A DNA stretch of 50,279 bases, the filler included, from Jimgerdemannia flammicorona (taxonomy: Eukaryota): assembly GCA_003990765.1 (NCBI GenBank). It is 2 parts of 2 records of this genome, joined end to end, with 100 filler letters (N's around TTAATTAATTAA, not from the genome) between each part and the next. Parts side by side here need not be neighbours in the genome. Positions count along the whole stretch, not along the records: positions 25,197 to 50,279 come from RBNJ01000885.1; 1 more part is not named here. One strand, written 5' to 3'. The notes below the pieces were generated by a model, which was not told where the DNA came from, searched no databases, and saw only the letters and a program-made list of their open reading frames with translations. Made by a program: the position numbers and the translations under genes. This document shows positions 5,295-44,547 of this stretch, piece by piece; the first letter of the stretch is position 1, and each line of letters opens with the position of its first letter.

Positions 5295-5359
5295 TTTTTT
5301 TATTTTTTTTATTTTTTATAGTCACTTGGACTTCTTCCTTTATTAATACACCTGTCTAT
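5295..5359 (-). mobile_element. 65-bp 5'-truncated LINE 3' tail inserted antisense into LINE copy 1
   Basis: Reverse complement ...aataaaggaagaagtccaagtgactataaaaaataaaa matches the LINE 3' end (50257-50279). Perfect 16-bp TSD ctggcagtactcttgg at 5279-5294 and 5360-5375. Confidence 0.92.
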
Positions 5360-5675
5360 CTGGCAGTACTCTTGGAGTTAGTAGAATATCAAGTTGATGA
5401 TCAGGGAGAGGAGATCCTTTGAGGGGTTGTGAATGACTGAGCAGCATACTTATAGGGGTTAAGAAAGGGATTGGAGAAGTAGAGAGTGGTATACATAAAT
5501 TATCAGGCAGAAATGGAGATTGTGGATAGAATGGAGTGTTAGGAAATCTTGAAAGCACTGGATGCTCAGGCTGTAGTGGAAGATGAGTTGGAAGTGGAGT
5601 GGTACTTAGATCTGGCTGGTGACAGAATGAGTATGAAATACTAGACTGGGCTCTCAATATCAAATATTATTCAAT

Positions 5676-11405: not shown

Positions 11406-12260
11406 TATAATAAAACTATATACTGATAGAATTAATATATTTCAGATAATCAATCTGACTATTGGCTCTAAGTTCTGAGTCTTATGAGAAAACACTGAGT
11501 TCTAATTATCTATTATAGTAGAGTCTAGATATCACTTTTAGATTCTTGTACTGATGGAAGTACTATACTTATATCTTAAGTTAATTAGGCTCAGAATTAT
11601 TGAAAAGTCAGATCTGAAGATTCTGTAATAAGAATACTACTTTATTCTTATATTTAGAAAAAGTAGAGCTGAGGTTACAATATACTCAGTATAGAGAGTA
11701 TTTATATATATTTGGGGCTATGACTAAATATAATATATTGAATATATATATATATATACTATTTTGAGTAACTATGACTACTAGTAGAAATTTCTATAGA
11801 AATTTTCATGCAGAATTTCCAGAGGCTTATAAGTATATAATAATTTATTATATTCTTCTCTTCTTTACCAGAGCCTACTCATTAGACTTAGCACTAAACT
11901 CTAGATACTTATTAAACTGAAGGGCAGTATACTGGACTACTTAAAAAACAATATCACTCTATTATTCATTACTCAAACTAATAATGTTCTTGAGAATAAA
12001 TCATAAAGGAGATCAAGAACTTAGGGTTGAGTACAGATAAAACATAGAGTCTTTTGGCAACTATTTAGATATAATTATTAATAAAAAGGTAGACTTGTTA
12101 TTTAGCAGTACTGAGAGTAGCTTATTGACAGATAAGGTATTCTATCTTATAGTACTCCTTTAATTCTTATTAGTAGCAAAAAGCCTGAAAATATTAAATT
12201 TTTTCAAGATATTATTGGGCTTTATTTAGATCTGAGTCTCTAGAGATTCATATATTAACA
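11406..12260 (-). mobile_element. LTR retrotransposon family D, 3' end (LTR 11406-11852, PPT, accessory ORF remnant)
   Basis: LTR ends tataataaa...tttattata, minus-strand TATA and AATAAA, purine tract next to 11852. Matches 23049-23910. Confidence 0.8.
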
Positions 12261-12261
12261 G

Positions 12262-15200
12262 AATATAATTTAGTAGAAGTAGTAAGAGAGAGTATAATGG
12301 GAGCCAGGAGAGAGCTGAAAGGACTGATGAGAGGGCCAAAGCCTGAGCCATAGTCAAAGAAGAAGATAAAGAGTAGTTGAAATATATATAAGAAAGATGA
12401 TAGACAAAGAACAGAGAAGATAATATATCCATTATTTATTACTATGCAAAAGAGCAGTCCTTATATATAAATACAAAGTCCTAAAAAGGAATAATATACT
12501 ATAATATAGAGATAACTGAATTAAGAACCTCATGTTATATAAAGATAAGAGGAGAGCCAATCCCAGAGTGAGTATAAAAATCAGAAACAAATAAATCCAA
12601 ATCAAGATTAAAAAACATCTACAGACTCTAGAGGAGTGAGCAGAAGTGAGGGGTGAGATCAAGCAGAGTAACCTACAGTGAGCCTGAGGTAAAGCCAAGG
12701 GTAGAGAGGAGCAGAGTGAAGACCAAGACCCTAGAGTGAGCATAAGACTCTGAAGAGGACCAGGATGTTTTTTAATCTTCTCTGGTAGAGCCAGAGGTAC
12801 TCAAAGGTAATGAAAATGCAAAATAAGAGTAATGAATAAGTGAAGAAATAGAAGAAAGGCACAAATGAGCAATAAGAGAGTGCTGAGAAAAAGATAACAG
12901 TCTATTGCATGAAAGAGAAGAGTACAGGACAGCGTCAGGACATTATATGGTCCAGTGAGCTTAATCAAATGGTATGATAAGAATTGGAAGAGAGAAAGAA
13001 GAGAGAGTACAGAAAGGATAAGAGGAGTGAGAGGGAAGAGAGGGGGGATAAAATAGAGAGAGAAAAGAAGAGCAAACAACTGACCATTCAACTGAGGCAA
13101 GCAGGTCATAAATGATAGAAATGGAGTAGACATGGTGATAGACTATGAAGTTGCTGAGAATCTGGATAGCTGATACCCAGTCAGAATGATGAGAGTAGTA
13201 TAAAGCAAGATGATAAATCTCACTGCAAATATACTTATGAAGAGTATAATAAGAATAATTGGAATAATAGTCAGAGTACTGTTAGGAAGGAGGGAATTTG
13301 AAATAAACAATAGTTCAGAAGAGAGAAAGAGAAATTGAAAGGTTCAAAAAGGAGATATCAGTCCTACTAAGTACCCATATATGTAATAGAATAATAGAGA
13401 GAGTAGATACTATGAAATATACTAGAAATATTGATGCTAGTAATAGTGAGAAAAATAAAGTTATTAATGTAATGGCAAAAGAAGATATCTCTAGCTCATA
13501 AGGCAATAGCAAGAGGTAAAGAATGATCATACAATATATGAAGTTCATGGGCCAAGCCCAATAAGATTGGCAAGGGTAGGGCATAATTTATTCCCATGGT
13601 AATATCAGTAGTTTGGTAAAAAGAGCCAAGGCTGACTTGAAGTAGTTAGAGCAGCAGAAGAGGAACATGAGCTCAATAATAGAGGCCAACACAACTGAAG
13701 AATCCAAAGGAAAGATAATAGAACTCAAGAAGTAAAAACAATCTTCAATCTTATCAAAATGAATTGTATTGTAGAAGGAGGAGAAATCACCAGAGACCAA
13801 GTGGGGAAAATAGTGAATAGGTGCAATAGTGGAATAGAGAAGTGCAAGCTTCTGAGTATCATAAAGAATAGTATACTCAGGCCTAAGATGATGCTAAAGA
13901 AGAGCATCTAAGAGAGGAAGAAACAAAACAACTATTTCAACATCTTAGTGGTAGGTAAGTAAAAAGCAGCTATAATGGGATGCTAAGCCAAAGTAGGCTT
14001 GTAAACCTTAGAAATGGTATAAAAAACTAGGAGATGAATATCTAGCAATTACAAAGAGTCCTGGAAGAAGTGAAAAACAGGAGGTGCAAACAGAGAATCC
14101 AAAAGTGAGGCAATATAAGCCAGATCAACCCAGAGAAGAGAGAGTATCTCATCTAATCCAAGGGTATGTATATGGCTTATAGGCTGTGGTATAGAGGAGA
14201 GCAGTAAGGTCACCAAGGTAAAGTGAATGGGAAATGAGGGCAAAACCTTAATTCTTATCAGTAACTATAAGCAAATGTAAATATAATTATTTGACTGATT
14301 TAATTATGGTATATACAGTATAGCCTGAAATCAGACAAGAGTAAGTACAATCTAGAAGAGTCAGTGAGTAAGCCATATCATAGAATATACAGTTAAAGAG
14401 ATATTAGAAGGAGGAACCCATTTGCTAGAATAAAAATGATAAGAGGGCAACTTAGTATAACCTTTAAAGAAGTTGGCAAGATCAAGAGTACAATTAAAGT
14501 ACTTGAGATGAGCTGGATCAATAAAGAAGAATTGGGAATAAGTTACCAGAAAGATGAAGTGAGGATCTAAAGAAAGTGCAAAAGTTTGAAGAGGGGTAAG
14601 AGGGCAGTTAGGCTAAGAGAAAGTAGGGGACAAAAGAGCCCTTGAAGAATAGCCCTGAAAATTCTAAATAATAACTGAAAAAGACAAAGGGGGGACAATA
14701 TGAGGAATCACTCAGGATATACCAGAAGTGATAATGAGATCTGAGAAGGGACTGAGATATCAGGGGAGAACCAAGCTAGGGAGAAGTTTAAAAGTAGAAG
14801 AAATTTTCCTTTACATGGACTTTTTTTGAGTAGAGTGAGATAGATGACTATGAGCAGATCCTATCTGAATGCTAGATCTTATAGCCACAGGTCTTCATGC
14901 AATATTTATACTCAGGGATACAGGGGAAATGGGACTTAGAGGAAATAATAGATGAGGAAGAGGGAGAGCAGAGATATAATGATGTCTTAGAAGAGGAGGA
15001 GATATGTAGCAGTAGCAGAAGCAGCAGCCAGTAGAGGAGTACCACCATATAGGCAGGTGGACTTGGCAGAGTGCTAATATGCTTAGTGGAGAAGGTGAGA
15101 GCAGATGGAGCAGGGCCAGAAGCCTACAGAGTGAATATCAAGAGAGTAACCATAGTGGGAGGCAGTCTTAGCAGTAGGAAAAGGAGAGTAAGAAGCCAAA

Positions 15201-16890
15201 GACTCCTTAGCAGAAGAGGTCTTGGTAGACTTAGGGTCCTTGGAAGTAGTGGTGGTAGCCTAGGATTAAACCTCAGTATAGGCAGTGGCCCAAGCCTCAG
15301 TCTAAATAGTCTCAGTGACTGAAACCTCAGAAGAAGCAGAAGAAGGAGTAGTGGCAGCAGTACAGGCAGCAGCAGTAGTATGGCTAGCCTCAGTCTCATG
15401 AAGGTGAGATAAGAAGGAATAGCTAGTGATAAGGAAATAGTGAACAGCATTAATATCTGTAGTAGCAGAAGGAATGTCATTGGCTAAAAAGCTATAGAAG
15501 AGAGCAGTATCAGCAAGATGATAGGCAGTAAGAGTCACAAAGGTAGTGTAGTCTATATGAAATTAGAGGAAGGCTATGACAGTAGCATCATATATTGCAT
15601 TAGCAGTAGCAATCTTAGTTATGACAGAAGTTTCCATGGTATTGACATCATAGTAAAGATGAGTCTTCTTGGCAGAGAGAGTTAGAATGAAATGGAACTG
15701 AGCAATAAGTAGATAGCCTGATGAGCAAAGGTCAAGAGAGAGGGAGAGATTGGCAGAGGATGTATAGGTATTAAAAGACACATTGATAGGAGAGAAGCAG
15801 GTGGAGGGGGAAACAGAAAGAGTATTTTTTATGACTGCATCAGCAGCAGGAGCCCTAGAGGCAGAAGTAGTAGCAGTAGTAATAGAGGGTGCAATGAGAG
15901 TCAGGAGAGAGCCAGAAGGACTGGTGAGAGAGCCAATATCCAAGCAGTATAGGAGGAGATACAATGGGAGCCAAGGGAGGGCTGGAAGGACTAATAAGAG
16001 GGCCAAAGCCTAAGTTATAGTTAAAGGAGAAGGAGACAGAGGGGAGGTGAGATATAAGAAAGATGAGAAATAAGAATGGACAAAGAACAGAGCAGAAATT
16101 GTATCTGTTATTTATTACTACACAAAAGCATAGTCCTTATATACAAATAAAAAGTCTCAAAAAGGAATGATATACTCCAATATAGAGATAACTGGATTAA
16201 GAACCTTATGTTATATAAAGATAAGGGAGAAGCTAATTCCAGAGAGAGAATAAAAATCAGAAATAAACAAATCCAAATTGAGATTAAAAAACATCTACAG
16301 ACTCTGGAGAGGTGAGCAGAAACAAGAAGTAGGTCAAGCAGAGTAAGCCACAGTGAGCTCAAGGTAAGGCTGAGGGGCCAAAGGTAGTTTGGGGAGAAGA
16401 GTGAAGACTGAGACCCCAGAGAGAGTGTGAGATCCTGGAGGGGACCAGGATGTTTTTTAATCTCTCTGGCAGAGCCAGAGGTATCCAAAGGTGACAAAAA
16501 TGCAAAACAAAAGTAAAGAATAAGTGAAGAAATAGAAGGAAGATATGAACAAGCAATAAGAGAGTACTAAGAAAGAGATGACAGTCTATTGAATAAAAGA
16601 GAAGAGCACAGGACAGCATCAGGACATTATATGGTCCAGTGAGCTTGATTAAATAGTATGACAAGAATTGGGGGAGAGAAAGAAGAGAGGGTATAGAGGG
16701 AGTAAGGGGGGAGAGAGTGAAGAGAGAGGGAGTAAGAGAGAGAGAGAAGAGAAGAGCAAACAATAGACCATTCAACTGAGGCAAGCAGACTACGAATAAT
16801 AGAAATGGAGTAGACATAATAATGGACCCAAAAGTCACTAATAACTCAGACAGCTGACACCTAGTCAGAATGATGGGAGCAGAAAGTAAA
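12262..16890 (-). mobile_element. Penelope-like retroelement (probably endonuclease-deficient) with ~0.93-kb terminal direct repeats
   Basis: Minus-strand RT motifs FYTISKVYKP..*HPII, GDFSSFYNTI, ITMGINYALPLANL, and a thumb-like YFK..YYSNYS...SEIYHL. 12262-13200 repeats 15935-16890. Confidence 0.8.
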
Positions 16891-16911
16891 ACAACAAACT
16901 ATGACATATGT

Positions 16912-18902
16912 TTTTCTCTGATAACATTTGGATTACACAAACTTCTGTCAATACTCAAGACTTTATTTTTGGAAAAAAAGTACTAGTAACATGGTGACTA
17001 ATGAATATTCCAAGGTGTGTGCAGGGCAGGGTGGCCCTATTGTATTTAACTGGCAGCATGTGGGGAGGAGTCATAGCTTGGGGGGAAGTATGTGGAGATT
17101 GCTGGCTGGAGGACATAGAAGGAGAGGAGGCAGTACTGGGGGACAGGGGACTAAGAGGATGAGCTTCACAGATAAGGTGAAGAGAGGTCATCTGATGTCT
17201 GGACTGGAGGGCTGACTAAGGAAGGACAAGGAGATAGCAAGGGCTGCTGGGTCTGGGGGAGTGGCTCAGAGCAGCAAGGGTAGCAGAGCTGGAGAAGTAG
17301 TGGCTGGAGGAAGCAGGACTGCTGATGGCAAGAAGACTGCTAATTTGGCAGAAAATCCAGATGTGATGGTTGATGACAGATCTGAACAGGGGGTAGACAT
17401 GAGGTCTGGGGATCTGACAGATGGTGTAATGGGCCTGGTGGCAACACTATTACTCAAGAAATTGAGGCCAGAATTTGCCATCACATTGTATTTCTGGAGC
17501 TTAGCAGTGACTGCTAGAATGATTCTGGAGCTTCTGGCCCAGGAGGTAAAGGGAGCTACCTTGGTGAAGTTTTTGAAAGAGCTGGAAGGAGTGGAGGTTA
17601 GATTTGAGAAGGAAGATATACTGTTGGAGATGATGGAGAAGGGGGTAGTGGTGGGGGGGGGGTGGCAATCCCTATGGCCAGGTGCTTATGTTGAGACCCC
17701 TGAGTAGTGTAATTGATAGTAATAGATATTCCTATGGTATTTGAAGGAGGTAGCCAGGAGACTGATTGTAGAGGTCATCAAGGAGTATGGGAATATCATA
17801 GATGTTGGTTTTTGGGTCTGAGAAGGTATGGAGTTCAGGAAAGAAGATGTAGATATCAGGGTATAGCTGGTAGATAAAGAGAATATGGAGAGAGCATGGG
17901 ACTAGCCAGTGATACTCAAATGGAGATCAGTGGAGTGTGAAATCTCTAGAGTGAAAGGGATGCAGGAAGAGGAAGAGGACTTACTAGAGGCATTGGAAGA
18001 TCTGGCTAGAGCTGTTGAGAGGAGATGACTGGTCTGGAAGAAGTTTGAGGCTAAGATTATAGTGGAGACTATGAATGGTAAGAAGGTGAGGCTAGACTGG
18101 ACAGCCTGGGAGAGGGCACAGGGGAGGTATATTCAGAAGGACCTGTTGGGGAAGTTGGAAGGAGGGGGGGCCAGGGGGACCACTATGGAAGATACTGGAT
18201 CAAGGGCAAGTACCTGGGTTAGAGAGAAAGAAGCAGCTCCAGGGGTGATCCAGGGGGAGAGAGGTGGCTCTGGGTTGAGTGTTATCATGAAGGATATAGA
18301 GATAGTTGAGGGGGAGCACCCTCAATATAGTGTGTCAGGTGGGGCTACTGGTAAGAATGAATTGTAGGATGTGCTGGAGGAGGATTGGGATGAGTTAGTG
18401 GAAAGAAAGACAGAGGGTGGGCAGGCAGAGAGGGGGAAGAGAGTGGCCCAGAGAGTTGAGGAGACAGTGGATGAGGAGAAATGATTATGAAAAATACTTG
18501 AGAACATAGTGGTAGAGGAGCTGGGGGGGGAGGACTTTCAGGTACTAAGTGAGAGACACTGGGCTGAAATTCTACATGGTGAGGAGATACCAAGGAAACT
18601 CTGAGATGAGATAATAGCAGCCTTGCTAGAAGGGAAGATATATCAAGTAGACGATGACAGAGAGGCAGTACTTCTGGCAATTGTGAATGATTGGACTGCT
18701 TATATATTAGATCTAAGGAAAGGGTTGGCAAAGTAGCAGGTAGTGTGTAAGGAATATCAAATGGAGATAGAAGCTGTAGATGGTACAGAATGTTAGGAAA
18801 TCTTGACAGTACTGGATACTCAGTAGAGAGAGACAGATAAGCTTGAAATAGAGAGGAACCTGGATATTGCTGGCAAAAAGATGAGTATGGAATTGTAGGG
18901 TG
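16912..18902 (+). mobile_element. L1/Tx1-like LINE copy 2 (diverged subfamily; 5' UTR + ORF1 only)
   Basis: LLKKLRPEFAITLYF..TARMIL and other ORF1 blocks are homologous to 44857-46440. Shared 5' end ttttctctgataacatt. Confidence 0.88.
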
Positions 18903-22559: not shown

Positions 22560-24200
22560 TAGTGAGATAATTCTATTACTTATCATAATAGATATAGTTA
22601 TTGATAAAAAGGCAAGATAGCTATTTAGCCTTACTGAGAGTAGTTTGTTAGTAGATAATTTATTCTATTTCATAATATTCTTTCAGTTCTTGTTGATAGT
22701 GGAAAGTTTGAAAGTATTAAATTTTTCCAAGATATTATTAGGCTTCATTTGGATTCAGACTTTCAGAAATTTATATATTGATAGAAGACAATTGAGTAGA
22801 GATTTATTACTATTCAATAGTTATAAGAATAATATAGCAATCTTATTCTCAATTTGTTCTTAGTGTTTTTATTAGTTATTTATATTATTAGTAAGTTATT
22901 TATATAATGTTTAAGAGTATTTTATATTTGTCTTATTAGAAATATAATATTTCTATTATATTATATATTTATATTAGATTACTATTTTTTCTATATTTGA
23001 TAGAAGATTATCTTCTTTTCATTTTACTAGATAATATTTATAAACTAGTATAATAAAACTATATATTGATAGAATTAATATATTACAGATAATTAAAGAT
23101 AACTATCAACCCTAAGTCCTAAGTTTTTAAGAAAGTAAAAAGTTCTAATTACCTATTACAGCAGAGTTCAGGTATCACTTTCAGATTCTTGTACTAGTGG
23201 AAGTATTGTGCTTATATTCTAAGTTGATCAGACTCAGAATTATTAACAAATTAGATCTGAGAATTTTGTAATAAGAATACTACTTGATTCTTATATTTAG
23301 AGAAAGTAGAGCTAATATTACAATATACTTATATAAAGAATATTTATACATATTTGAAGACTATGATTAAATATAGTATACTGGATATATCTATACTACT
23401 TTGAGTAACCATGACTACTAGTTAGAAATTCTGTAGAAATTTCTATAGGAATTTCTATAGGAATTTTCAGAGGCTTATAGATATATGTAATGATTTATTA
23501 TATTTTTCTCTTCTTTGCTTGAGTCTACTCATTAGACTTAGTACTAAACTCTAGATACTTATTAAATTGAAGGACAGTATACTAAACTACTTGAAAACAA
23601 TTTTGCTCTATTATTAATTACTCAAATTGACAATATTCTCAAGAGATACTCTATAGAGATGATTAAGGACTTGGGGTTGAATGCAGAAAAGGACATAGAG
23701 TCTTTTAGCAACTATATAAGTATAGTTATCAATGAAAAGATGAGCTCATTGTTTGGTGATACTGAGGGTAGCTTATTGATAGATGAGAAATCTTATCTCA
23801 TAGTACTTCTTAAGTTTTTATTAGTAGCAAAAAGTCTAGAAGTATTAGATCCTTCTAAGATATAGTTGAGCTTCATTTGGGTCAGAGTCTCTAGTAATTT
23901 ATATATTATGTAATAAATAGTAGTTCAGTAAAATTCTATTAATATTTGATTACTCTAAAGATAGTAGTAGCATTTTGTTCTTAACTTATTCTCAGTATTA
24001 TTGCTAGATACTTATATTGGGGGGAGTAGGTTATCTATATAGAATTTTTTTTTGGATATTTATACTTTTCTTCACTAGAGTTATTTAGAGATATAACTGT
24101 CTTTTGAAAATTCTGTCAGAATTTTATTATACTAGATATCTATATTAGATTACTACTTCTTCTGTATTTGGTAAAAGATTGTCTTTCTTTTTCTAGATAG
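22560..24200 (-). mobile_element. Two more family D fragments: internal piece 22560-23048; LTR 23049-23502 + PPT + accessory ORF to ~24200
   Basis: 23049-23910 aligns to 11406-12260, and 22590-23040 aligns to ~23715-24200. Confidence 0.78.
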
Positions 24201-25096: not shown

Positions 25097-25196
25097 NNNN
25101 NNNNNNNNNNNNNNNNNNNNNNNNNNNNNNNNNNNNNNNNTTAATTAATTAANNNNNNNNNNNNNNNNNNNNNNNNNNNNNNNNNNNNNNNNNNNN
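25097..25196. other. Assembly gap / artificial linker (44 N + TTAATTAATTAA + 44 N)
   Basis: Symmetrical 100-bp spacer containing stops in all six frames. Confidence 0.95.
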
Positions 25197-25683
25197 GCGG
25201 CTTCCAGTAGTCCGCCAAGCCACATTCGATAAGGAGATTCTTCATATGATAGGCCCAGATTGCGTAATCTTTCCCGTCGAAGACAGGGATGGACCTCTTG
25301 GACGTTTGCACTGTCGTAATAGCTGCTGGGGCTGGAATTGACGTCGTCGTGATGGTCGTAGTAGTTGCCGCTGGGGCTGTTCCGGTACCCGTTCCGGTAC
25401 CCGTTCCGGCACCCACCGAGGGACTCCCTGGCGTATTCGACATCTCTTTTGTGCATAGAGTAGTGTAGTGTATATTAAAGAGGTGTTTTGGTTAGCCACT
25501 AACCGGGGCTCATAACCTATTGTGAAATACTGGAATTTGAGGGATAAAGGAGCAATCTTTATTGATATGCGCGAAGCACGTATTTACGCGTTGATGACGT
25601 TTCCACTGATGACGTCCTCACACGTGAGCTGTGCCACCTTCACGTGAGCTACATACCGAGTTGATTAGCTAGAAATCTCAACA
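25197..25683 (-). mobile_element. Young Ty1/Copia retrotransposon 5' end (LTR 25521-25683, PBS, gag start at 25443)
   Basis: 163-bp TG...CA LTR, PBS GGTTATGAGCCC, gag IPVFDGKDYAIWAYHMKNLL..CGL. CpGs are retained. Confidence 0.9.
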
Positions 25684-26276
25684 ATCTTTATGACCTAGTC
25701 TATAATAGCCTATATAGAATATACTATCTGATATCTTGTTTATTTTATAATATTATTAAATAATATTTGATGTCAGATTTTGCTACTATAGTATATAGCT
25801 ATAGTTTGGACTTTATCTCTATAATGAGAATCAGTCCACTAAGACCTATATAGAATATATATAATTATATGTAGTAGTATAGGATTTGAGAATTATAGAC
25901 TAGTATTTATAATATTATACTACTATTTGGATCTATTTCTTTACCACTATGATATAGAGCTAGTCCATGACAATCTGTATATATCACTTTATATAACCCA
26001 AGACTATAATAGGATAGAGCTTTATAACTATGGCCTAGCTTTGCTTCCATAATAAGGATCAGCCCACTAAGACCTATATAGGACATATATAACTGCAGTA
26101 GTGCAGAATTTATAGACTATGGGCTAGCATTTGTCTCTACTTATATAGAGCTCTCAAGTATAGATATATCTCATATAGGTCCTTTTACTATGAGGTAAGT
26201 ATAATTTCTTTAGACCAGATTCTTCAAACTGACTAATGTAAAGCATTTGAGTCTGAAATATTTCATATATATATAT

Positions 26277-27790
26277 TGTAACGGTGACCCCAGAATGATG
26301 ACATCAGCACAGGAGACAGCCTTTCCTTACAAGCCACCAGATCGGAGTATAAGAAGATCATACAACATACGAGATGAGCAACGATGACCAACTGTGAGTT
26401 ATTGTGACCACAGCACAAGCATCCTGAAGAATATAAAAGAAGGATCAAGGAACTGCAGTAGCAGCAACCAATAAGAACCACTAATCCCAAAATAGCTCAA
26501 AGACTTACCATAAACAAAATACCTGCTGCCCGCCAAACCTCAAGGTCAAGGAATCATCAAGGTATCTCGATCGAGGAAAGGATGTTCCAAGACATCAGAA
26601 GAGCCATGAGGACCCACTCAAGAAGGACTCCTAGTGTCAACCTGGGTACTGCAGACCCTTATCACTTTATCCTCTATCGTCGTGAAATGGAAACAAGAAT
26701 CACCATTGCCACCGAATGCCTCCAAATGTGGCAGGAGTATGAAATAGGAAACCTCCTCTGCTGGGAGTTCCCACAGGGCAGCCCTCAAGAGCTATAAGAT
26801 GCCACCCCCATGGACCTACATGAGACAAGGATAGCAAAGAAGATCCATCAGATCTTCAGGCATGCACTATGGTCAATCCCCAACTTGGAGTATGTTAGAG
26901 TCTCAGACTTCAGAGACCTGTCATCCTGCTGCATCAATGCACTAGAAGCCAGGGTAGCCACAGAAGCCCAGTCCACTATCACCCTCAACAGCAAAGAAGT
27001 AGAAGACTTCTGGCATCCTATCCTTCAGGACAACCCAGACCAATTTCTGCAAGGATTGATCTCAGTATTCCAAGGCCCAAGCATCTGGGTTAGATCCCCC
27101 CAAGACCCCACATTTGTCCCCTATTTTGTGGAAGAGAACCTCATAGACTGGAGAGCTCCAGACCTTGTTCCCGATTTCCCCGCCACAGCCGAATGTGATG
27201 ACGTCATCGATGACGTCATCCCACACGATATACCCGAAGCACATGAACCGCGCGACGAGGCATGCGAAGTATGTGAAATGCGTGACCTACATGACGAATT
27301 CGTGGACCTCATCTCCTTCAGTGATGATGATGATGATGATGATGAAGCTCCCATGATCCTGAACTTTCTGCTCTAAAGTTCTTTGTTACACTGGATAATG
27401 CCAGCACCGGTATTCTCATGTAACACTGGATAATGCCAGCACCGGTATTTTGATGTAGTACTAAATAATGCCAGCCCTGGAACTCAGTAGTTTTAGTTAT
27501 TGGAATTTATATTTAGCTTCATATCTTAGCAACCATTGAATTATATTTTGTATAAATACCTCTCTTATTTCCTCTGAAATAAAGTCAGTCAAGTTCAGTA
27601 CAATACACACACTTCCTTGCAAGAAATCTAAGAGATAACAAGACAGTTAAAGATAAGAAGTTTGAGGACTATAAGACCTTGGGAAGGCACTCCAATAAGA
27701 ACTTGCTTATAACAAACTTGAGTTAGTCTAAGAGATACACCTTGAAGAGAATCTGGCATATTTGAAGGACTCAGTGACCACTATATGACA
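26277..27790 (+). mobile_element. Probable 1.5-kb solo LTR (family E) carrying an ORF in U3
   Basis: TGTAAC...TGACA ends within an (AT)n tract, three ~34-bp repeats at 27384-27480, TATAAA ~27551, AATAAA ~27578. Confidence 0.75.
26384..27376 (+). pseudogene. ~330-aa unknown protein with acidic tail (LTR-retrotransposon accessory ORF family)
   Basis: ORFs 26582-26797 and 26810-27376 and the upstream ATG at 26384 share one frame. Stops at 26405, 26459 and 26795 are all revertible C->T. Confidence 0.75.
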
Positions 27791-30233
27791 ATATATATAT
27801 CTAAAATATATATATAATAATTTATATATAATAATTTACTCATCTAATCTATTATTATCTATAACTTAGTATTCATTGTTTGGTATTTATAGTCTGTATT
27901 TACAGATAGCTATTTGTAGTAGGTGAGTTAGTAAAGGAGTAGAACAGGAATTTAATAGATCATGTCAGATTATGTCACACTCAGATTATATAATACTCAG
28001 ATTATTTAAGATTATTTCACACTCAGATCATATAATTTCAAATTTAAGCTTTAGTTAGTTTTCATATCTTTGGGATAATAAAAGAGGAGATATATATTAT
28101 CAATTGAATATTATATATCAAGAGCTGTCTTGTACAAAAAAAAACTCATAGCTAATAACTAGAATACTTCAAATTAAATAATAATACATTAGTAGTAATA
28201 TAGTATACTTATATTATATATCATTGACAGAATTTATAAAGAAAGATTGATGAGATATCTCTCAGTTATTGATAGCTTCAATAAGAGTTTGATAAAAGAA
28301 GTGTTATCTCTAGAATATATTACCTTCAGTTGATTGAATATTACAAAGAATTGATAATAAGAAAGCTGAGATAAGAAAGCAGAAAGGCTAGAAACAGGAG
28401 AGCAGAAAGGCTGGGGAAAGGAGAGCAGGAGGCTGAGGACAGCTGAGTATTTTGTATAGTTTTACAAGAAAGTTTGACAAGAGAGTTAGAGTTGGAAAAT
28501 TTATTCTCAAGGGTAGATTTGTAAAGAAGAGAGGTGAGAGTTTGAAAGAGAGAAGAGTTCCAAAAAGAGAATTGAGAATAATGAAGAGCTTGGAGAGGAC
28601 AAGGAAGAAGAGGGAGGAAAAGAGTAGTAGCTAATGAGTTTATTTATATAGGTGTTCAGAGAGTATATAACATTTAGTAGCTGCATCCTCCTGATATGAG
28701 ACTACTATTCTTGATATATATTATAATATGCAAAAAAATATAGTATAATCTGATAATTAAATACTATAGTTACTATATTGCTATGAAATTGTATCTATAA
28801 AAAACCAGATAGCCAGAAAAGAAAAAAGATAGCTAATGTCTGCCAGATATTAAATATCTACTATATAGTAAATATCTACTATATAGTAGATGTCTACTGA
28901 ATAGTTAATATCTATCTCTAATTAGCAAATCTATAGTGAGCCATATAGCAACCAGATAGCAACTAATCTATATAAAATACCCCAGAGACAAGAATGAATA
29001 AATCTCAGTCTGAAAAGTCAAAGAAAGTAGAGAGCTTTCTTTTCCCCACTCCATTCTACTTTTCAATACAAAGCCTGAGAAATCTGCCAAGTTCAAGTAA
29101 AGAACTTTGCTGTCATTTGAGTAATCTGCTGCTTAAGGAAAAACCCACTGTTTGAAGAAAAATCCACCTATATTCTCAATACAAAGCCAGTCTATTTGAT
29201 ATAACTTTGCAGTGAAGCCAGTCTCTCTTGATATAATAGTATATAAATGAAGTCAGTCTTTGATATAAATTTGCTCAAGAATCTGCACCACTTAAAAGTT
29301 ATCTGCTATATTTTAGTATGCTTACTAGATAAAGCCAGAAGTCCACCAATTCAGGAAGAATCTATATCAATCAAGTTATCCAAGTCACTTACTATTTTGT
29401 AATGCCAGAAATCAATAGCATAATGTTAGAGATTGTTGTGATATACAGAGATCATCATGCTATACAAAAGATTGTCATTCAGAAATCACATAAGAAAACC
29501 CACTCACACTATGTATAAATTGCTACTATACTCAAGAACCATCCCAATAAGAAAATCAACTGTAGTATCCAGATTTGACTATTATACTACTAGATACCAA
29601 TAAGGAATTTTAGAACATTTTGTTGCTTTTTAACAAAGTAACTGTGGACTCAAGCCAAACTACATCAACTCCCAATCTTGTAATTTATCTCTATTGAGCT
29701 GATATATTACATTTAGAAGCTCAACTGGGAAAATTTCAAAATCTATATGACTTTTTAGCTTATAAGAACTCACAGTCAAACTAGATAGATTTGATACAAC
29801 ACCAATCACTGCTATTACAAGAGAACAAATCATCACTAGTATTTAGACAGAAAGAGAAGTAATTATCTCAAAACTTGCCCATTACTCAGTATCAGAAAGA
29901 TCCCAATCAGAAGCCAATATATATAGTACAAAATCCTTAGCCAGTAGTAACAGACTTATCACCAGATCAATCAGACTAATCAGATCAACCAGACAATATA
30001 GATAGCTCTGCTAGAAACTTCAACAAGCTTGTACAAGAACTTGAAGACCTTATTGCAAAGACTCAGTTTTCTTTAGAAGTTCTATAGTCTCTCCCATTGA
30101 ACCACTATTAGGGTCAGTAATCACAGAATAAAAAGAATCAAGAATAGTCCCTTTAAGGTTACCCAGATCCATTGCACCTTTTCTGAGTTTAGCAATACTA
30201 TCCTCAGAATACTCAAGTATCTTAAGTTCCAGC

Positions 30234-34105: not shown

Positions 34106-36685
34106 TAAGAAAAAAGTGCATCTTCTCCAGATCAACTACTTTAAGAAAAATACCTCTCAGCAAGTATATTACCAACTAGTCAAGCTATACAAAAACCTCA
34201 TTCTGGAACCAGGAGAGCAGACCATCTTTGAAATCTTTACACTACTTAATTCTAGAAACCTTTTCTCTGAACTCAATAATGTCATAAAAACCTATATATA
34301 GAAGTATAGATATTTTCTGACAAGATGAACTCTGATATTCAATTAAAGTTAGAAAAGTCTCATTCTATCAAAAAGAGCCATCATAGGCTACCTGATACTC
34401 TATCTCAACCAAATATATAGAAAAGTTTATGAACTTAACTTATTGAAAAATAGCAAAAGATCTCAGAAGAAAGAAAAGACCTCTCTGTATCTTAGAAGAA
34501 AGTGAAGTCTTCCACCAATATTGGAGAAGAATTGATACTTCAGCTATAACAACAATTAATAGAACTTCTTTATAAATACCAAGATATCTTTACTATAGAC
34601 TATAGTAACTTATCATACAACTCATTATACTACTATAGTATAATACAGAAAATACAACACCCATCTAGCAGAAGCTTTATAGAATACTCTATCATCTAAA
34701 GATATTTAAGAAGAAATATATTTAGAAATTCTTAAACAATAGAGTTATCTGACCCTCTATGAGCCCCTGGGCCAGCTCTATACTTATTGCATCTAAGAAA
34801 GAAGAATAGAGACTCTGTGTAGACTACAGGAAGCTCAACTCAGTCACTGAAAAAGATACTTACCTCTTGCTCAGAATTGATGATCTCTTAGAACAATTGC
34901 AAGATACCAGATACTTCAGCAGTATGGACCTTTTTACAGAATTTCATAAGATCCCCATTGATCTCTAAGACATTCAGAAAACAGCCTTTCTTACTCTAGG
35001 AAAATTGTTTGAATATCTCTAAATACTTTTTGGACTTTGCAATACATCTTCTACCTTTTAAAGAATGATGAACTCATTCTATGGTCTACTGATCTACTAT
35101 TGCCTAATTATATATATAGGTGATTCCAATATCTATTTAGCAAATTTCAAAGAATACTTACATTATCTAGAGAAATTCTTCAAGCTTATCTACAAGAACT
35201 ACCTGAGACTCAATGCTAAGAAATACTACTTTGAGAAACAGAGACTTGAATTTCTTTGATTTATAGTTTTAAAAAAAAGAACTCATACAGACCTAAAGAA
35301 AACTGAGAAGATTAACAATTGGCCAGTAATCAAGACCTTGAAGGAAATACTATCATTTCTGATATTAGTGTTTTACTATAAGAGATTTATTAAGAACTTT
35401 ACCCAAATTGCTATCCTAATCTGAATTCTTCTCAAGAAAGAAGTACCATACAAATGAATGAAACTATATGAACCAGCCTTTAAAGAACTTAAGTACCATA
35501 TGACCACAGTACTAATTCTTATACAACCCAATCTACAGAAGCCATTCATCTTATATATAGATACTTCTAAAGATATATTTGGAGTAGTTCTAGTTTAAGA
35601 AAGATCTTAGCAGTACTATGTGATAGCTTATGTAAGTCAAGCTATCAACCAGCAGTAAGCCAATTATAGTAATACCAAACTAGAATACCTTATAGTTATA
35701 TGGGCAGTTACTTTATTCTAACACTACTTTTTTAGAAAAAGATTTACTCTGATAACTAATGATACTGCTCTAAATTATTATTTGACTACAAGAAACCTAT
35801 CAGAATCCTTGCTCACTAGATCCTTATTCTGTAAGATTACAAAATCACCATCATTTATAAAGTAGAAAAAGCTCACAACAATGTTGATATACTTTTTCAT
35901 CAACCTTAATAAACTATAAGAAGGGTGTACTGAGGAGCTATACTCTAAAGAAAGCTTCTATAGCTATCAAGGTATAAGAAGATCTCATCTAAAAGAAACA
36001 CCAGAAAGCCCACCAAGAATAGATAAATATAGAAGTAAAGTGGTAAACAACATACCAATATTGGCCCAATCTCAGAACAGGAGTCCAAGATATACTTAAG
36101 AAATATAATATCTATCAGGAGTACTAAGAGAAAAAAAACTACCAAGCACCACTACAACCAATCATACTACTAGATAATATCTATGAAAGATGGAAAATAG
36201 ATATTGTAACATAGCAGATACTTAACCTCAGAAGTATATTAGATTTCTGTATCTTGAAAACTTAATCTTCTTTGACTTTGCAGAGTCCTCAGGATGTGGG
36301 AGTGGGTGAGTTTGAAATATATCTACCTGCAGACTTACTAATTCCTTTACTTTCTCTTTGCTTTGAACTATTTCAATCTGAGGTTTATTCACTCTAAGAT
36401 ACTGGGTTATTTATACAGATTTGTTAGCTATAAGACAGCTAAGTTATGATCAAATTATAAGTCACTTTTCACAGATGTTAATCCTTGATATCTGTGAAAT
36501 GATTGATAATATTTGTGAAAACTTTAACATTTGTGAAATGACTGCTATTTGTAGGGCTATACTATATTGGGAATTAGGTTCAGATACTATAATTAAATGT
36601 CTAATTCCCCTAATTCTTATTCCTAATTCAGATCAACCATTATAACTTCCTCTTAAATAGGTGATTTGTCTCTAAAACATTCTAT

Positions 36686-37147
36686 TCACTCAAACTCCCA
36701 GACTTCTATGATTTGTATCTTCTTGTACTGTGCAATTTGTGTCATTATATTCTCCCAATGGTGCCTCTTAATATATCCAAAATCTTCTGAAACTACTCCT
36801 TAGAAATGGGGTAGGGCAGCCTCATTGTCTTTAAACAGCTTATTGACTTGTTTAGCAATTGTAATCTGAGAGTGAGAGAGCTGGCACTCTCTGATCCAAT
36901 CTTCTTTTCCCATTTCTGGGTGTGAATTCAGTAGCTATCCTAACTTGAAGTATTCTTCAAACTCTGTCTGATTCTGGTAGGCCTTGAAGTGTGAGATTTT
37001 TGACAGATGTATCTGTACTATACTTTGGATACTATCATATGATTTCTCTATCATGGGTGGCTCAATAGTACACCATTGTCTTTCTATGGCTTGTTGTACA
37101 GCACTAGTGATCTTGAGAGCTATGGCCATACTTCATTAATTAGCCAT
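36686..37147 (-). pseudogene. Accessory ORF of family C between integrase and PPT
   Basis: ORF 36935-37129 continues in frame through revertible stops: EEYFKLG*LL...IAKQVNKLFKDNEAALPHF*GVVSEDF. Confidence 0.75.
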
Positions 37148-39839
37148 GATACTTCTTGAGTTGGTTTTGGTGAGTAGTAGTAGGGATGATTGTGCCTGAG
37201 AGTTTTCATAGCCAAAAGGTGGTCCTTTTTTATATCTTGCACTAGGTAAGGTCTCTCTCACTTAGGCTCCAGTTTTTATGACCATGAAGCTTCTACTATA
37301 TTCTGATATACCAGGACTTTGTCTTCTATCTTGATAATATCTAGAGGCTTGTGAACTTTTTCTGCATTATTCTGTTGTAGTGCCTGCACCTTGGTTATAT
37401 AATCTTCAGCCTTTTTCCTGATTTTGTATAGTCTCTGTATCTCTCCATCTATATGTTTCCATACAGTATCTCCATTAGATGATAGGGTGTCTTGAGAACC
37501 TTCTTCTCTAAATAGTATTTCCTGAGAGGTGAAATGAATACTTTGTGATCAAATATCCTGGAGAGCAGATAATGCTATTGGCAGATAGTGATCCCAGTTT
37601 TCATAGTTATCACAGATCTTGGTAATAATATTTTTGAGGGTCTTGTTGGTCCTTTCTGTCTGTCCATTTTCTTGAGGATAGTATGCTGTGGTCTGAATGT
37701 GCTGGATCTTATACTTTTTGTAGAGAACCTCAAAGAACTGGTTCACAAATTCTGTTTCTCTATCTGTGGTTACTTGTATTGGGGTCTTGAACTGGTAGAT
37801 AATTTCTCTGTAAAAGAAATCAGCAATTGACTATACATTGGCTTCCTTGAGGGGCCCTGCCTCTATCTATTTTATAAAAGGGTCTACAATGATGATGATA
37901 TATTGATTGCCAGGCAAAATCAAAGGTAGAGGATCAATTACATCCATTATAATGTGGGTAAATAGTATTGGTTCTATGTGTGCTGATCCTGGGGCTTGGT
38001 TTCATTGATCTTGTTTCTGCTTCTGGTATTTATCACAGGTCTTGACAAATTGTCTGATATCTTTCTCCATTCCTGGCCACCATATTGTTCTTCTTACTTT
38101 ATTATATGTACTTATTCCTCCCAGATAACCAAGTTCATATACTGATTTCATTGCTTGGTCCTTCTTGTATTCTGGTATAACTAGTGGTTTTCCTTTCTTC
38201 AATATTTCTCCATTGGTTTCGAATTGTTTCCATATTCTATTGATAATCATTTGTGTCCATTCTTCCAGATGTTGGAGCATCTTTCACTGTCCCAAATAGG
38301 TGATCATTCTATAGTAAAGCTCCTTATTCATAATTGGTTTATTGGTTGAGAGTCCTTTGGGATATCTGTGAGAGGGTATCTGCATTGGCATTGGTTCTTC
38401 CTGGGCAGTGTATGATGGTTTCATCATATGCTTGCAACTTCATGATCTATCTGGCATAGATTTCTTTGGGTTGTCCAGTAGTTAGTAGTCAGGTGAGAGC
38501 TGAGTGATCTGTCTGAATGGTGAAGTGTCTTCTGGTGAGATAGTAGTAGAACTTTTCTACAGTCCAAATTACTGCTAGATATTCCAACTTATAGGATTCA
38601 TATTCTTTTTGAGCTCCTTGAGTTCCTTGACTTAGGTATGTGATGACATACTCCACTTTATCTTTCTTTTGAGCTAGGACTACTCCTAGTCCTTGGGTGC
38701 TTACATCTGTCTGCAGGATAAATTCTTGAGTCCAATTGGGTCTTCTGAGAATAGGTGTCTGGATCAGTCTGACCTTGAGTTCTTTGAATGCTCTCTGTTA
38801 TCTACTAGTCCATTGGAACTTGATATCCTTCTTATTGAGTTCATAGATTGGGCCTGTGATGTTAGAAAATCCTCTGATGAATCGGCAGTAGTATGAGGTA
38901 AGTCCCATAAAGGCTTGGGCTTCAGTGACTGTGGTGGGCCTTGGGTATGCTGCTACTGCTTGAATCTTGAGGGGGTCTGTATATGTTCCATCTCAATTAA
39001 TAATATAGCCAAGATAGATAATCTCAATTTCTGCAAATTTGTACTTCTTGGGCTTGATGTAAAGACCATGCTGTCTCAACTTTTCCATCATCTGTTAGAT
39101 ATACTGCAGATGTTCTTTAGCTGTCTTGCTGTAGATAATAACATCATCCACATAAACCATCATCTATGTATCTATATCATAGCAGAAGATTTTGTTCATC
39201 ATTCACTGAAAGCTTGCAGGGGCATTGTACATTCTGAATAGCATTTACAGGTAGATATAGGTTCCATCTGGAGTGATGAAGGCTGATTTCTCACTTGCTG
39301 TTTCTGTGAGTCCGATTTGGTAGAATCCTGAGTATAGATCCAAGGTGCTGTAGTACTGTGCTTCATCTCCCAGAGTTATAAGGATGTCATTGATGAGGGG
39401 CAGTAGTTGGCAATCCTTCTTAGTGACTATATTGAGCTTTCTGTAATCAACACAGAGTCTTGGTGTGAATTCTCCAGACTTGCTTCCTTTCTTTGGAGCT
39501 AGTACAACCAGTGAAGACCAGGGGCTACTGGCTTCCTTAATGATACTAGCTTCTTCCATCTGTTTGATTTCTTCTCTAAGCCATTCTCAGTAGACTGGTG
39601 GGACAGGTCTTGCCTTCTGGTAAATTGGTTTGATATCTCCAGTATCTACATCATGATAGTAGTGTGAAGTCTTTCCTTTAATATTCTTGAAGTCTGTGGC
39701 AAGGACATCCTCAAATTTGTAGAATATTTTCTTGAGCTCTATCATGAGTGGAAATTTCTTTCCAATAGTATAGCTGTGCTTGTTTGTAGTTTCCTCCTTC
39801 TTGTGTTTCAGCTTGGTGATCTTTGTATTAGCAAATACT

Positions 39840-40260
39840 CCTCTTTCTGTAGATCTGAATCCTTTCCTTCCTCTTTCTGTTTCCTCCAACTTCTTGACTT
39901 CCATGATTCTTGGCTGAAGGACTGGGAAGATCAATGTTGATACTAGTCAGTCCTTCTTCTTGATCAGAAATGGAATTATAGGATTGTGGTTTCTAGCAAT
40001 AAGTAGTATTTCTCTAGTATAATCGGAATCAATGACTCCTCCTTCAATTGTGATTTCACTTCTAGTCAGGCTGCTTCTTGTCTTAAGGATTCTGATATGG
40101 TCTTTTGAAATGGTCATCTCCAGACCAGTTGTAAGTAGAGTGGTTGTCTGGGGTTCCAGTACAGTTTCTTCCACTGTGGTGATATCCATTTCAGCTGTAT
40201 TTACTGACTTGTATTCTGGTAAGACTACATCAGGATGAATCTTCTGAATCTTGATCTTGA
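39840..40260 (-). pseudogene. dut: dUTPase domain of family C (between PR and RT)
   Basis: KIHPDVVLPEYKS..AEMDI, KTRSSL, GGVIDSDYTRE, TERGRKGFRST. Confidence 0.92.
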
Positions 40261-43200
40261 TTTCTTCTTCATCATCACTGTCTTTGAGGAGAGCTGGTGG
40301 TTTATCATTCTCTTCCTCCTCTTCTTTCATTCTCTTTTCTTCTCTTACCTGTTTCTCAAGAGTCTTCTCTCTTCTTTGGTGGTAGATTTTCTTGATTTTA
40401 CTGGTATACTGGTAACACTCATTGATGTGCTCCATGCAGTACATTCGGATCTCATGGGGGCAGACTCCTTTTGGTGCATTTCCTTCTATAATCTTCTTGC
40501 ACCAGTCCTCTTTGCTCATCTATCTGATTTTCTTCTTCTTTTTCTGGATTGTTACCATGTAGGCTTCCTCTTGTTCACTCTCTTCTTCCTCTATCTCAGG
40601 CAGGACTCCTTTGTTAACATTGATCAGAATTCACATCTTCTGTCTATGGTAGATGATCTGCATCTTCTGGGCATTTAGATTAATTATTGCCTTGGCTTTA
40701 TGAAGCTATTGATTGCTGATAAGGATGTTGTAGTTGGTTGCATTGATCATGATTACATCTATTGGAATGGTTGCTCCTCCAAACTTGATGGAAATATCTT
40801 GAATCTTTCCCAGAGGTGTGGCTCTTGTGCCATCTGCTGTGACAAATATCAATTTGGTTGCTTCTTTAACTTCTCAATCTAGGTGGTCTGCTGCTTTCTT
40901 ACTGAGGAGATACTCTCCTGCTTCTGTATCAATAATAGCCTCAAATACTCTATCCTCAATTTGATAGGTTGTATAGGCAGTTGTCTTTGCTTTCTTCTCC
41001 TGAGTCTTCTTGAACATTGTTGGCCTCAGTTATCTTCCAACCTTACTCCTTAGTTATCTTGGCAAGTCCATATCTCATTTGCTGTCTGAATGTAAGTATT
41101 TCTACCAACTGGCCAAAGGTGGTATTGACCTTTTATTGACTGAGATCCTTGAAGATATCATACTTGAAGGTCTTCATTTTGTGAAGCTTCTTCTCCTTTT
41201 CTCCTTCACTAGCTAGAGTGGTTCCTTGAATGATATCTTGAACAGTCTGTTCTAGTTCCATATCTTGGTCTATTTCTCTACCTTGACTTTCTATTGTCAT
41301 TTCTATCTGCTTTTCCACAGAGTTCTTCTTGGATCACTCTGGTGGTCTCTTATAGGGTGCTTTGCAGACATCCTTCTTGATGGTCTGCACAGAATAGGCC
41401 TCTCATTCCTTTTCATCTGATTCTTCAATCTCTTTGAAGGTGATGATGTTGGTCTGTTCCTTGTTTTGAGTTGCATTGCTTGGCTATGCCTTGTACTTGG
41501 TTTCACTCATGCATTTATATGAGTAGTGGCCTTCTTCTCCATAAGTATAGCAGGTATCTCTCTTCTTGTCTGAGGTGGCAGCAAATTTCTGAACTGATCA
41601 GCAGTCCCTTCTTTTAATTTCCTTTACCATATCTCCTAGGTGAGCTATTATTTCAGTGAACCTCTTGGCAAGTTCTTCCATGGAGTCACTATTTCTCTAT
41701 TACTTGGTAGCTCTTGGTTGAGATGTGTTTTGATTGATTACTGTGGTAGGGATCATACTAGTTGTCTTGGGTCTTTGATTCTGACTCCAGTAACTCTCTC
41801 TATTATAGAGTCTTATAGGTGTCTGGCTATTCATTATCACTGAGCATAGGTGACCTTCTGTATCAGATCCAGGACTATTGGTGATGAGTGAATGACCAGG
41901 GCTATCTCTGAGTGGATTTATTTTATAAAGGTTACTTTGGCTACTTGATCTCTGATGGTGGCAGCATAATCTACAAGAATTATCTAATATCAGATTCTGG
42001 TGTAGAATGTGTTTGGATCCTCACTCATTCCTTAGTATGTTGTATTGAGCTGATCCTTCAGTACCTACTTGATCTCATCTGTGTAGTATGTGGCTTAGAG
42101 CCAGGTCTTCTGTGCTGCTAGTATAGCATTATCATCATTTCCTACATGGATTGCAGCTGTAAATGCTGCTCTCACAGACTGAAGAGTATGAGAGTTACTT
42201 GCTGTCTTGCTATCAGACCCCTTACAGCAGCATATTGCTCAAAATCATCAATAAAGGTGATGATTGATTTATCTGAAGTATAACTGTAGAATACTGGTGG
42301 TCTCATATCTATCTTGTCTAGATGTCTTAGTTGTATAGTTGTTTGGGTGATGGTGGTTGTTCGTTATTTAGCTTGAAAGTGGGGGATTTATCTTGAATCA
42401 CTAGCCAATGGACACTAAGTTATAACATAGTAGATACTTAATCTTGGGAGTATGTCAGATTTCAGTATCTTGAAAACTTAATCTTTTTTGACTCTGCAGA
42501 GTCCTCAGGATATAGGGGTGGGTGAGTTTGAAGTATATCTGTCTGCAGGCTTACTAGTTCCTTTGCTTTTTCTTTACTTTGAACTATTTTGATCTGAGGT
42601 TTATTCACTCTAAGATACTAAGTTATTTATACAGATTTGCTAGCTATAAGGTAGCTAAGTTATGACTAAGTTATGAGTCACTTTTTACAGATGTTAATCC
42701 TTGACATCTGTGAAATGGTTGATATTTGTGAAAACTTTAATATTTATGAAATAACTGCTATTTATAAAACTATACTATATTGGAAATTAGGTTCAGATAC
42801 TATGATCAAATGTCTAATTTCCCTGATTCTTGTTCCTAATTTGGATCAACTGTCACAATGTTATTAGACTCCTATCAGTTATATCAAGAAGAAATAAATA
42901 TATTCTAGTATTTGTAGAACATCTGACCAAATGACCCAAGGCTTTTCTAATGAAAATTATCAATATCTTGACTATTGTTATTTTCTTCCATAGGCTCATA
43001 CTCAGATATGGACCTCCTGAAGAACTTATTTCTGATCAAGACACAGAATTCATCAATAATATAATTATAAGTTATATCTAAATTTATAAGATTCAACTTA
43101 AATAGACTATATCATACTACTCTCAAATCAATAGTATGACTGAATAAATGAACCAGATTATTAAGAAAGAAAATACCCAAGTCAATTCTACTAACTGAGA

Positions 43201-44127: not shown

Positions 44128-44272
44128 AGGATAGTCTGAGGGCAGACCATCCTTTAGTGAGGGCTGATGTAATGTACAAAATAGTATAGTATACCCAGAT
44201 GACATAAATATCATAGTTACCCTATTGCTACAAAATTATATAAATAACCAGATAGCCAGAAAAGAAAACAGA

Positions 44273-44416
44273 CAGCTAATGTCTACTAGATAGTAAATGT
44301 CCACAGGACAGTAAATGTCCACTGTACAGTAGATGTCCACTGAACAGTAAATGTTCACTATATAGTAAATGTCTAATGCACAGTAGATGTCTACTGAACA
44401 GTCAATGTCTGCTTCC
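44273..44416 (+). repeat. 18-bp tandem repeat (cagtaaatgtccactgta, ~8 units) in B2 3' LTR
   Basis: Directly visible. About 5 units at the equivalent site in the 5' LTR (28830-28919). Confidence 0.9.
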
Positions 44417-44547
44417 AATTAGAAAATCTATAGTTCACCACATAGCAACCAGATAGCTACCAACCTATATAAAATACCCCAGAGACAAGAGTGAATAAAC
44501 CTCAGTCCCAAAAGTCAAAGAAAGCAGAGAGCTTCCTTTTCCATTGC

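Follow-up and report, generated by a model that had tools for sequence, protein, structure and literature searches.

A probable solo LTR of a Ty3/gypsy-type retrotransposon in Jimgerdemannia flammicorona that appears to hold an accessory gene within its U3

To our knowledge, whole genes inside the U3 region of a long terminal repeat (LTR) occur only in a few retroviruses, with sag as the example and nef and bel2 as cases of partial overlap. In MMTV, the complete sag ORF sits within U3, ahead of the LTR promoter; both LTRs carry it, and solo LTRs retain it. By comparison, nef of lentiviruses and bel2 of foamy viruses begin outside the LTR and overlap U3 in part. Among the papers listed in a literature search for ORFs inside an LTR or its U3, which left most subscription journals uncovered, all cases were retroviral and none concerned a non-retroviral LTR element. 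In plant LTR retrotransposons, sense accessory ORFs termed ‘aORF-3S’ are described between pol and the 3′ LTR, and the wordings ‘in the LTR’, ‘inside the LTR’ and ‘within the LTR’ are absent from the main text of that study (PMC7264820). Bdelloid elements similarly carry an ORF3 between pol and the 3′ LTR and also possess a dUTPase (PMC5408684).

Here, we describe a 1514-bp repeat unit in a 50,279-nt stretch of J. flammicorona DNA (assembly GCA_003990765.1; hereafter, the window) that seems to combine features of these systems. Like MMTV with its sag, the unit appears to hold a complete protein-coding ORF, broken in the window copy, within U3 and upstream of the LTR promoter, and like nef and bel2, this accessory gene stands at the 3′ end and reaches into the LTR. 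However, the protein has no sequence relation to Sag (Pfam returned no family at E up to 1, and thus neither the MMTV Sag nor the lentiviral Nef family), its AF2 secondary structure contains no predicted membrane segment and the unit would be the LTR of a Ty3/gypsy-type retrotransposon rather than of a betaretrovirus. Unlike nef and bel2, to which there is no sequence similarity, the whole ORF plus ~240 bp before it would lie inside the LTR, a position that also sets it apart from aORF-3S and the bdelloid ORF3. The features of the unit are as follows.

26277 to 27790, plus strand: very probable solo LTR with TG...CA ends, 1514 bp, delimited by depth limits, loose ends and terminal LTR homology
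26265 to 26276, plus strand: left flank, (AT)6, of low complexity; with the right flank a possible target site duplication (TSD) ATAT or ATATAT
27791 to 27800, plus strand: right flank, (AT)5, read from the sequence
26277 to 26291, plus strand: LTR 5′ end TGTAACGGTGACCCC, att-like, resembling by eye the LTR starts TTGTGACAGTTGATCC and TTATAATGGTTGATCT of element D (see below)
26432 to 26439, plus strand: TATAAAAG box, candidate internal promoter, 80 nt 5′ of the start codon of the gene family
26519 to 27376, plus strand: accessory ORF, a pseudogene in the window copy, with ATA for ATG at 26519-26521, TAA at 26795-26797 and the stop codon at 27374-27376
27197 to 27220, plus strand: two copies of GATGACGTCATC in the acidic tail of the ORF, from a repeat search
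27384 to 27475, plus strand: enhancer-like tandem repeat, 35 bp x2.6, between the ORF stop and the TATA box
27551 to 27558, plus strand: TATAAATA, putative LTR promoter core, assigned through the homology of the core of the relative L001 to that of the D LTR
27578 to 27583, plus strand: AATAAA poly-A signal, 20 nt past the TATA box
27750 to 27790, plus strand: U5 end, in register with the D LTR ends at 27 of 41 nt (5′ LTR) and 24 of 41 nt (3′ LTR)

That the unit is bounded by TG...CA, as the preliminary description of this DNA had claimed, is confirmed: it starts with TGTAACGG at 26277 and ends with TATATGACA at 27790, and thus has the termini of an LTR. Its extent can be traced in public contigs matched to 25300-28700 at 85% likeness, which came from three runs, X1 (a soil metagenome; 1808 matching records), X2 (184) and X16 (45); a fourth run, the raw reads X23, yielded no matching read and is uninformative. 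At this likeness, contig depth is confined to bins 26212-27807 in all three runs, and the adjoining bins 25756-26211 and 27808-28263 have zero depth in every run. Loose contig ends fall exactly at 26277 in X1 and X2; among the 18 of 104 loose ends listed, none lies at 27790, and the 3′ boundary is instead backed by the empty bins past 27807 and by the terminal homology to the LTR of element D. Past the terminal TGACA, two letters are readable in a single X16 contig, and no primer-binding site was seen among the listed ends. The unit is therefore a high-copy dispersed repeat whose copies share exactly these ends, and its boundaries are not due to chance. It sits within an (AT)n run, so that the TSD is ambiguous: both flanks fit ATAT or ATATAT, which is compatible with a duplication and undiagnostic, as such flanks would fit by chance.

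Within the window, blastn finds no other copy of the unit, no purine tract stands to its left and no internal element sequence lies on either side, all of which agrees with its earlier designation as a solo element; 26277-27790 is a real unit and very probably a solo LTR. The window holds this single copy, and no full-length element of the family with paired copies was seen. Scans for further loci of the unit's family returned none from viral contigs (0 by pattern, 0 of 215 stretches) or genome contigs (0 of 199 stretches) and one, L001, from 92 metagenome stretches; the family is represented mainly in soil metagenomes.

The preliminary description had regarded the unit as an LTR, and three lines of evidence uphold this. 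One is the purine tract (PPT) expected in front of TGTAACGG, which is found in other copies: directly 5′ of 26277 these read ...TTATTCAGGAGGAAGA, and the tract AGGAGGAAGA lies flush against TGTAACGG in six contigs, three from X2 and three from X1, six being the count among the 18 loose ends listed out of 104. A purine tract flush with TGTAACGG is what stands before a 3′ LTR. The sequence that precedes the unit reads ACTCAGGAAGATTCTTATTCAGGAGGAAGA in the three X2 contigs and GAAGATCCTTATTCAGGAGGAAGA in the three X1 contigs. Within the window, a purine-tract motif at 31778 was considered and rejected, as this single match had two mismatches against 1.31 matches expected and no LTR follows it.

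The two other lines come from comparison with a bona fide Ty3/gypsy element of the window, here called D, which contains dUTPase, RT, RNase H and integrase domains and is bounded by LTRs of ~442 bp that are 87.6% alike.

36204 to 42856, minus strand: reference Ty3/gypsy element D with dUTPase, defined by its domains and paired LTRs
36204 to 36645, minus strand: 3′ LTR of D, with the purine tract AAGAGGAAG at 36654-36646
42415 to 42856, minus strand: 5′ LTR of D, without an ORF homolog upstream

The last 41 nt of the unit match the D LTR ends in register at 27/41 and 24/41 positions. Only two of the 100,196 41-mers of the window reach 27/41, one of them the unit itself, and the three that reach 24/41 are the unit itself and the two D LTR ends. 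Furthermore, the TATA/AATAAA core of L001 aligns to the D LTRs over ~85 nt around TCTGTATAAATA...AGTGAATAAACCTCAG. The local score of 28 was reached by none of 300 shuffles for either LTR (shuffle maxima 19 and 18), and the semi-global z values are 6.4 and 4.3. The unit itself is not significantly similar to the D LTR in stringent local alignment; in soft local alignment, its score was reached by 3/300 shuffles for the 5′ LTR and 76/300 for the 3′ LTR, with semi-global z values of 1.6-3.6; the window's own copy resembles the D LTR only weakly. Promoter and poly-A signal follow each other in U3-R-U5 order in the unit (TATAAATA at 27551, AATAAA at 27578), in a core related to that of a bona fide LTR.

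Elements with domains of the gag-dUTPase-PR-RT-RH-IN type are represented in the window by D and its relatives only, and no internal region was seen attached to the 1514-bp LTR. For gag, matches in the ESM Atlas were scattered over several eukaryote phyla and gave no taxonomic information. As to the dUTPase, a domain of this kind lies between gag and protease in Ty3/gypsy elements of the window, at 533-2458 and 39950-40519, both on the minus strand. LTR-like segments at 28724-29250 and 44170-44542 possess the same type of core, TATAAAATACCCC...GAATAAATCTCAGTC, suggesting a promoter module common to several related gypsy families.

The inner layout of the unit decides where its ORF lies with respect to U3, R and U5. 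The promoter core follows the ORF stop at a distance of 175 bp, and the LTR start precedes the family's ATG by 242 bp. Because a D-homologous promoter core thus lies downstream of the ORF and the LTR start lies upstream of it, the whole gene would be within U3. The proposal that the ORF is located in U3 is borne out to this extent, given that the core downstream of it has its homolog in the single promoter that the 442-bp D LTR possesses. R is presumably short, as the AATAAA follows the TATA box by only 20 nt. The part of the unit that follows the ORF measures 414 bp and is roughly collinear with a whole D-type LTR of 442-454 bp. Upstream of the ORF, the TATAAAAG at 26432 might drive the accessory gene on its own; GAATATAAAAG is identical in L001, the sole relative for which DNA is available and whose sequence begins there.

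In the window copy, the ORF is dead, as it has lost its start codon and acquired a premature TAA. The frame of 26279 comprises a 305-codon stretch (26462-27376) that is interrupted by a single in-frame TAA at 26795-26797, and relatives have ATG where the window has ATA (26519-26521) and Gln where it has TAA. Most contigs carry G at 26521 and C at 26795, the latter with a depth of 16.4/19.7 in X2, 254.7/285.4 in X1 and 835/835 in X16. An intact ORF of the ~330 codons given in the preliminary description is absent from this copy. Its estimate that two-thirds of the unit are coding is somewhat too high: the 858 of 1514 bp between the family's start position and the stop (26519-27376) amount to 57%, and the 305-codon frame to 60%.

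Elsewhere, the ORF is represented by nine further public proteins and one metagenome contig, L001, whose ORF is intact and encodes 323 aa. A search of 5.8 billion proteins returned six homologs with 59-84% identity, two further cluster members (P0007 and P0008) were added to these, and an exhaustive HMMER search of 1.84 billion representatives gave five matches, the new ones being P0009-P0011. Full-length or nearly full-length members measure 214 (P0009), 247 (P0001), 271 (P0003), 323 (L001) and 342 aa (P0010); the majority of the public entries are predictions shortened at the N-terminus. Forms fused into proteins longer than 342 aa were found neither among 2424 candidates nor among the five HMMER representatives. 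All public contigs encoding a family protein are short (720-2375 bp), as is to be expected where metagenome assemblies contain repeats. A plain tblastn search of the ORF against the window yields the self-match only, homologs within the window being detectable solely with profiles.

Comparison of the window copy with L001 gives a dN/dS of 0.22 over 283 codons and differences of 0.36/0.24/0.51 at the three codon positions. The first 632 aligned coding positions contain two gap columns and are 67-71% identical, the part encoding the acidic tail reaches 50% identity, with 84 gap columns, and outside the coding region identity is 48-57% amid many gaps. With its homologs and this pattern of substitution, the ORF is a real gene family under purifying selection.

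The encoded protein combines a basic N-terminus (in P0003, a charge of +4 in each of the two foremost blocks of 30 aa), a helical core and a tail that turns strongly acidic towards the C-terminus and ends in LNFLL. Six unit-family members matched no Pfam family at E up to 1, and the two window ORF pieces drew a single listing, tRNA_lig_kinase (E 0.16), which falls short of the cutoff for that family. In a comparison made by Pfam only, the protein also corresponds to no ORF3 type among those considered from the study of bdelloid elements (PMC5408684). Sequence comparison with the PDB gave no match for the unit family and one chance-level match (E 0.057) for the ORF family of D. The AF2 models are poor (mean pLDDT 49 and 54), with a helical N-terminal domain and a disordered remainder, and no fold match was obtained from VIA-align wide (best Z 4.5) or from BFVD (nothing at E up to 0.001); the first match in the ESM Atlas (0.83) is a lead only. 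If we were to guess, with low confidence, the protein could be a trans-acting helper of the element's cycle that binds nucleic acid or acts in regulation. As for the DNA encoding the acidic tail, each GATGACGTCATC copy at 27197-27220 contains the palindrome TGACGTCA, which we take to be a CRE/ATF-type site; the region is also an internal inverted match.

The comparison with element D extends from the LTR to the accessory gene. Between its pol stop and its purine tract, D carries an ORF of its own, and decayed relatives of this ORF were located on the minus strand with an HMM of the D family, at 12101-12226 (3.4e-4), 22624-22734 (1.8e-3) and 23632-23868 (2.6e-3).

36689 to 37147, minus strand: accessory ORF of D, from a 153-aa family, with two stops; ~150 codons between the pol stop and the purine tract
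11406 to 12226, minus strand: copy a, comprising an ORF remnant (12226-12101), a purine tract (11866-11853) and an LTR (11852-11406)
22624 to 22734, minus strand: copy b, a truncated ORF remnant whose relation to an LTR is unreadable
23049 to 23868, minus strand: copy c, comprising an ORF remnant (23868-23632), a purine tract (23516-23503) and an LTR (23502-23049)

The ATG of the D ORF overlaps the pol stop (ATGGCTAA at 37140-37147, minus strand), which hints at coupled translation or a compact junction. Its family counts ten public homologs (P0013-P0022); P0013 (153 aa) and P0014 (121 aa) extend to the C-terminal end of the family, and the remaining ones lack one end or both. In a profile-profile comparison with hhalign, the unit ORF family and the D ORF family align with a probability of 84.3 (E 7.2e-6, 115 columns), with nearly the whole 153-aa D protein set against residues 16-152 of the unit family; as controls, the reversed alignment reached a probability of 2.3 and the highest value among 60 column shuffles was 2.1. 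The single sequence of the D ORF against the unit-family profile was not significant (probability 0.75, P 0.075, E about 1). On the profile comparison, the N-terminal ~140 aa of the unit protein, about half of it, are probably homologous to the accessory ORF of D. A 310-aa ORF at 45508-46437, which lacks a Pfam family and belongs to a G-skewed repeat family with an RVT_1 match at 48330-48785, was also considered as a homolog of the accessory ORF and rejected (probability 0.08).

The order of these parts was traced with a regular expression, a purine run followed by T(T)RTRAYRR, which matches the window four times; shuffles gave 0.66 matches on average and 3 at most. Three of the four belong to D, a and c, where each closely follows the ORF remnant and closely precedes a ~450-bp LTR, so that all three readable copies share the order pol, ORF, purine tract, LTR. 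This is exactly the layout of aORF-3S and the bdelloid ORF3, with an ORF that is probably homologous to the N-terminal half of the unit ORF. It thus holds for three decayed elements that a homolog lies outside the LTR, as had been stated for elements B, C and D of the preliminary description, which may not be the same ones. In the unit's family, by contrast, the order is purine tract, LTR start, ORF, instead of the pol-ORF-tract position of the D family. The unit and D thus appear related in their LTR termini, TATA/AATAAA core, purine tract and accessory-gene family, and differ in the length of the LTR (1514 bp in the unit versus 442 bp in D) and in the ORF, which has 214-342 aa and lies inside in the former, and has 153 aa and lies outside in the latter. 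The fourth match of the expression, a purine tract plus TATAATGG at 12284-12300 on the plus strand, stands at the edge of a 920-bp repeat pair (12288-13208 and 15956-16894) that is 80% alike and forms a nested element.

Taken together, we consider it probable that a Ty3/gypsy element akin to the dUTPase elements of the window recombined between its LTRs and left the unit behind as a solo LTR with an accessory gene in its U3. The 5′ edge of U3 is set by the plus-strand priming site. In the unit's family, the accessory gene would begin ~240 bp past the purine tract and LTR start, and in the sister families the same gene is placed between pol and the tract. Where the tract precedes the gene, reverse transcription, an established mechanism that we apply here by extension, would copy the whole gene into both LTRs of each new insertion, and recombination between the LTRs would leave a solo LTR that keeps one copy. 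As the main LTR promoter would lie downstream of the gene, element transcripts would carry the gene in their 3′ U3 part, as is the case for sag and nef. That the LTR boundary shifted to capture the gene, as proposed earlier, fits the two arrangements well, and the direction of the shift is inferred rather than proven. Given the similar LTR start in both arrangements, a moved or duplicated module of tract plus LTR end is as likely as a newly recruited priming site.

Among the alternatives, the one to be taken most seriously, even if we think it unlikely, accepts the same LTR with the reverse history: the gene was ancestrally inside, and D, a and c moved the tract and LTR start downstream and shortened the gene, or else each placement has an origin of its own. 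With TGTAACGGTGACC in the unit and TGTGACAGTTGATCC in D, the two arrangements have similar LTR start motifs, which makes the simple recruitment of a new priming site less than obvious. Yet, two distinct families, D on the one hand and a/c on the other, have the gene outside the LTR, and the collinearity of the post-ORF part of the unit with a whole D-type LTR argues in the same direction, as does the position between pol and the 3′ LTR in which accessory ORFs of LTR retrotransposons are usually described (PMC7264820). A different objection concerns the promoter. If the upstream TATAAAAG at 26432 were the main one, the ORF would come to lie in a very long R/U5 leader. Its box is a perfect TATA-like sequence 80 nt before the family ATG and identical in L001. 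We nevertheless judge this highly improbable, since the downstream TATA/AATAAA core is homologous to the sole such core in the 442-bp D LTR and since R would need to span ~1.1 kb, for which we know of no precedent.

Two further explanations would deny the unit its place at the end of an autonomous element. It could be a short mobile unit in its own right, or a host gene that was retroposed or captured, in either case with LTR-like ends that are merely borrowed, and the uniform shortness of the protein-holding contigs and the lack of any domain-bearing protein above 342 aa would suit such an origin. However, the brevity of the contigs is what metagenome assemblies of repeats produce, the unit ends are homologous to a real LTR and the sequence preceding the unit in other copies is conserved and purine-rich, with 11 of the 14 bases of ACTCAGGAAGATTC matching, by eye, the pol end of D (ACTCAAGAAGTATC); we therefore give this explanation very little credence. 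A chance ORF or host gene fragment between chance TG and CA dinucleotides, for which one could cite the missing Pfam family and the broken ORF of the window copy, is hardly credible, as it is contradicted both by purifying selection on the ORF and by the existence of a high-copy repeat with exactly these ends, and intact, diverged copies exist as well.

If the preferred reading, a solo LTR with an accessory gene in U3, is right, each new insertion would carry the accessory gene twice. Within one 50-kb window, related Ty3/gypsy elements have the gene outside the LTR in three copies and inside in the unit, so that a shift of an LTR boundary across a gene would be directly visible. Such elements may offer a natural system for studying what determines the edge of U3, how accessory genes of retrotransposons are expressed and whether solo LTRs act as protein-coding units. 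A bolder idea, which we regard as doubtful, is that the LTR constitutes a self-contained gene cassette with its own promoter (TATAAAAG at 26432), a conserved gene and the poly-A signal of the LTR. Were this true, hundreds of gene copies for a trans-acting element protein, each expressible by itself, would be spread through the genome by retrotransposition and by the formation of solo LTRs, making the LTR a gene-amplification vehicle whose position could have been selected for the dose of a helper or counter-silencing factor.

Additional features were seen elsewhere in the window. The G-skewed repeat family mentioned above occupies 3916-9398, 17296-18898 and 44547-50279, in copies that are 67-79% alike and show a very strong excess of G over C on the plus strand (GC skew 0.36-0.56 per kb). 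To the left of the unit, two runs of 44 N (25097-25140 and 25153-25196) interrupt a minus-strand ORF at 25141-25443, the product of which presumably resembles the N-terminus of a copia-type gag.
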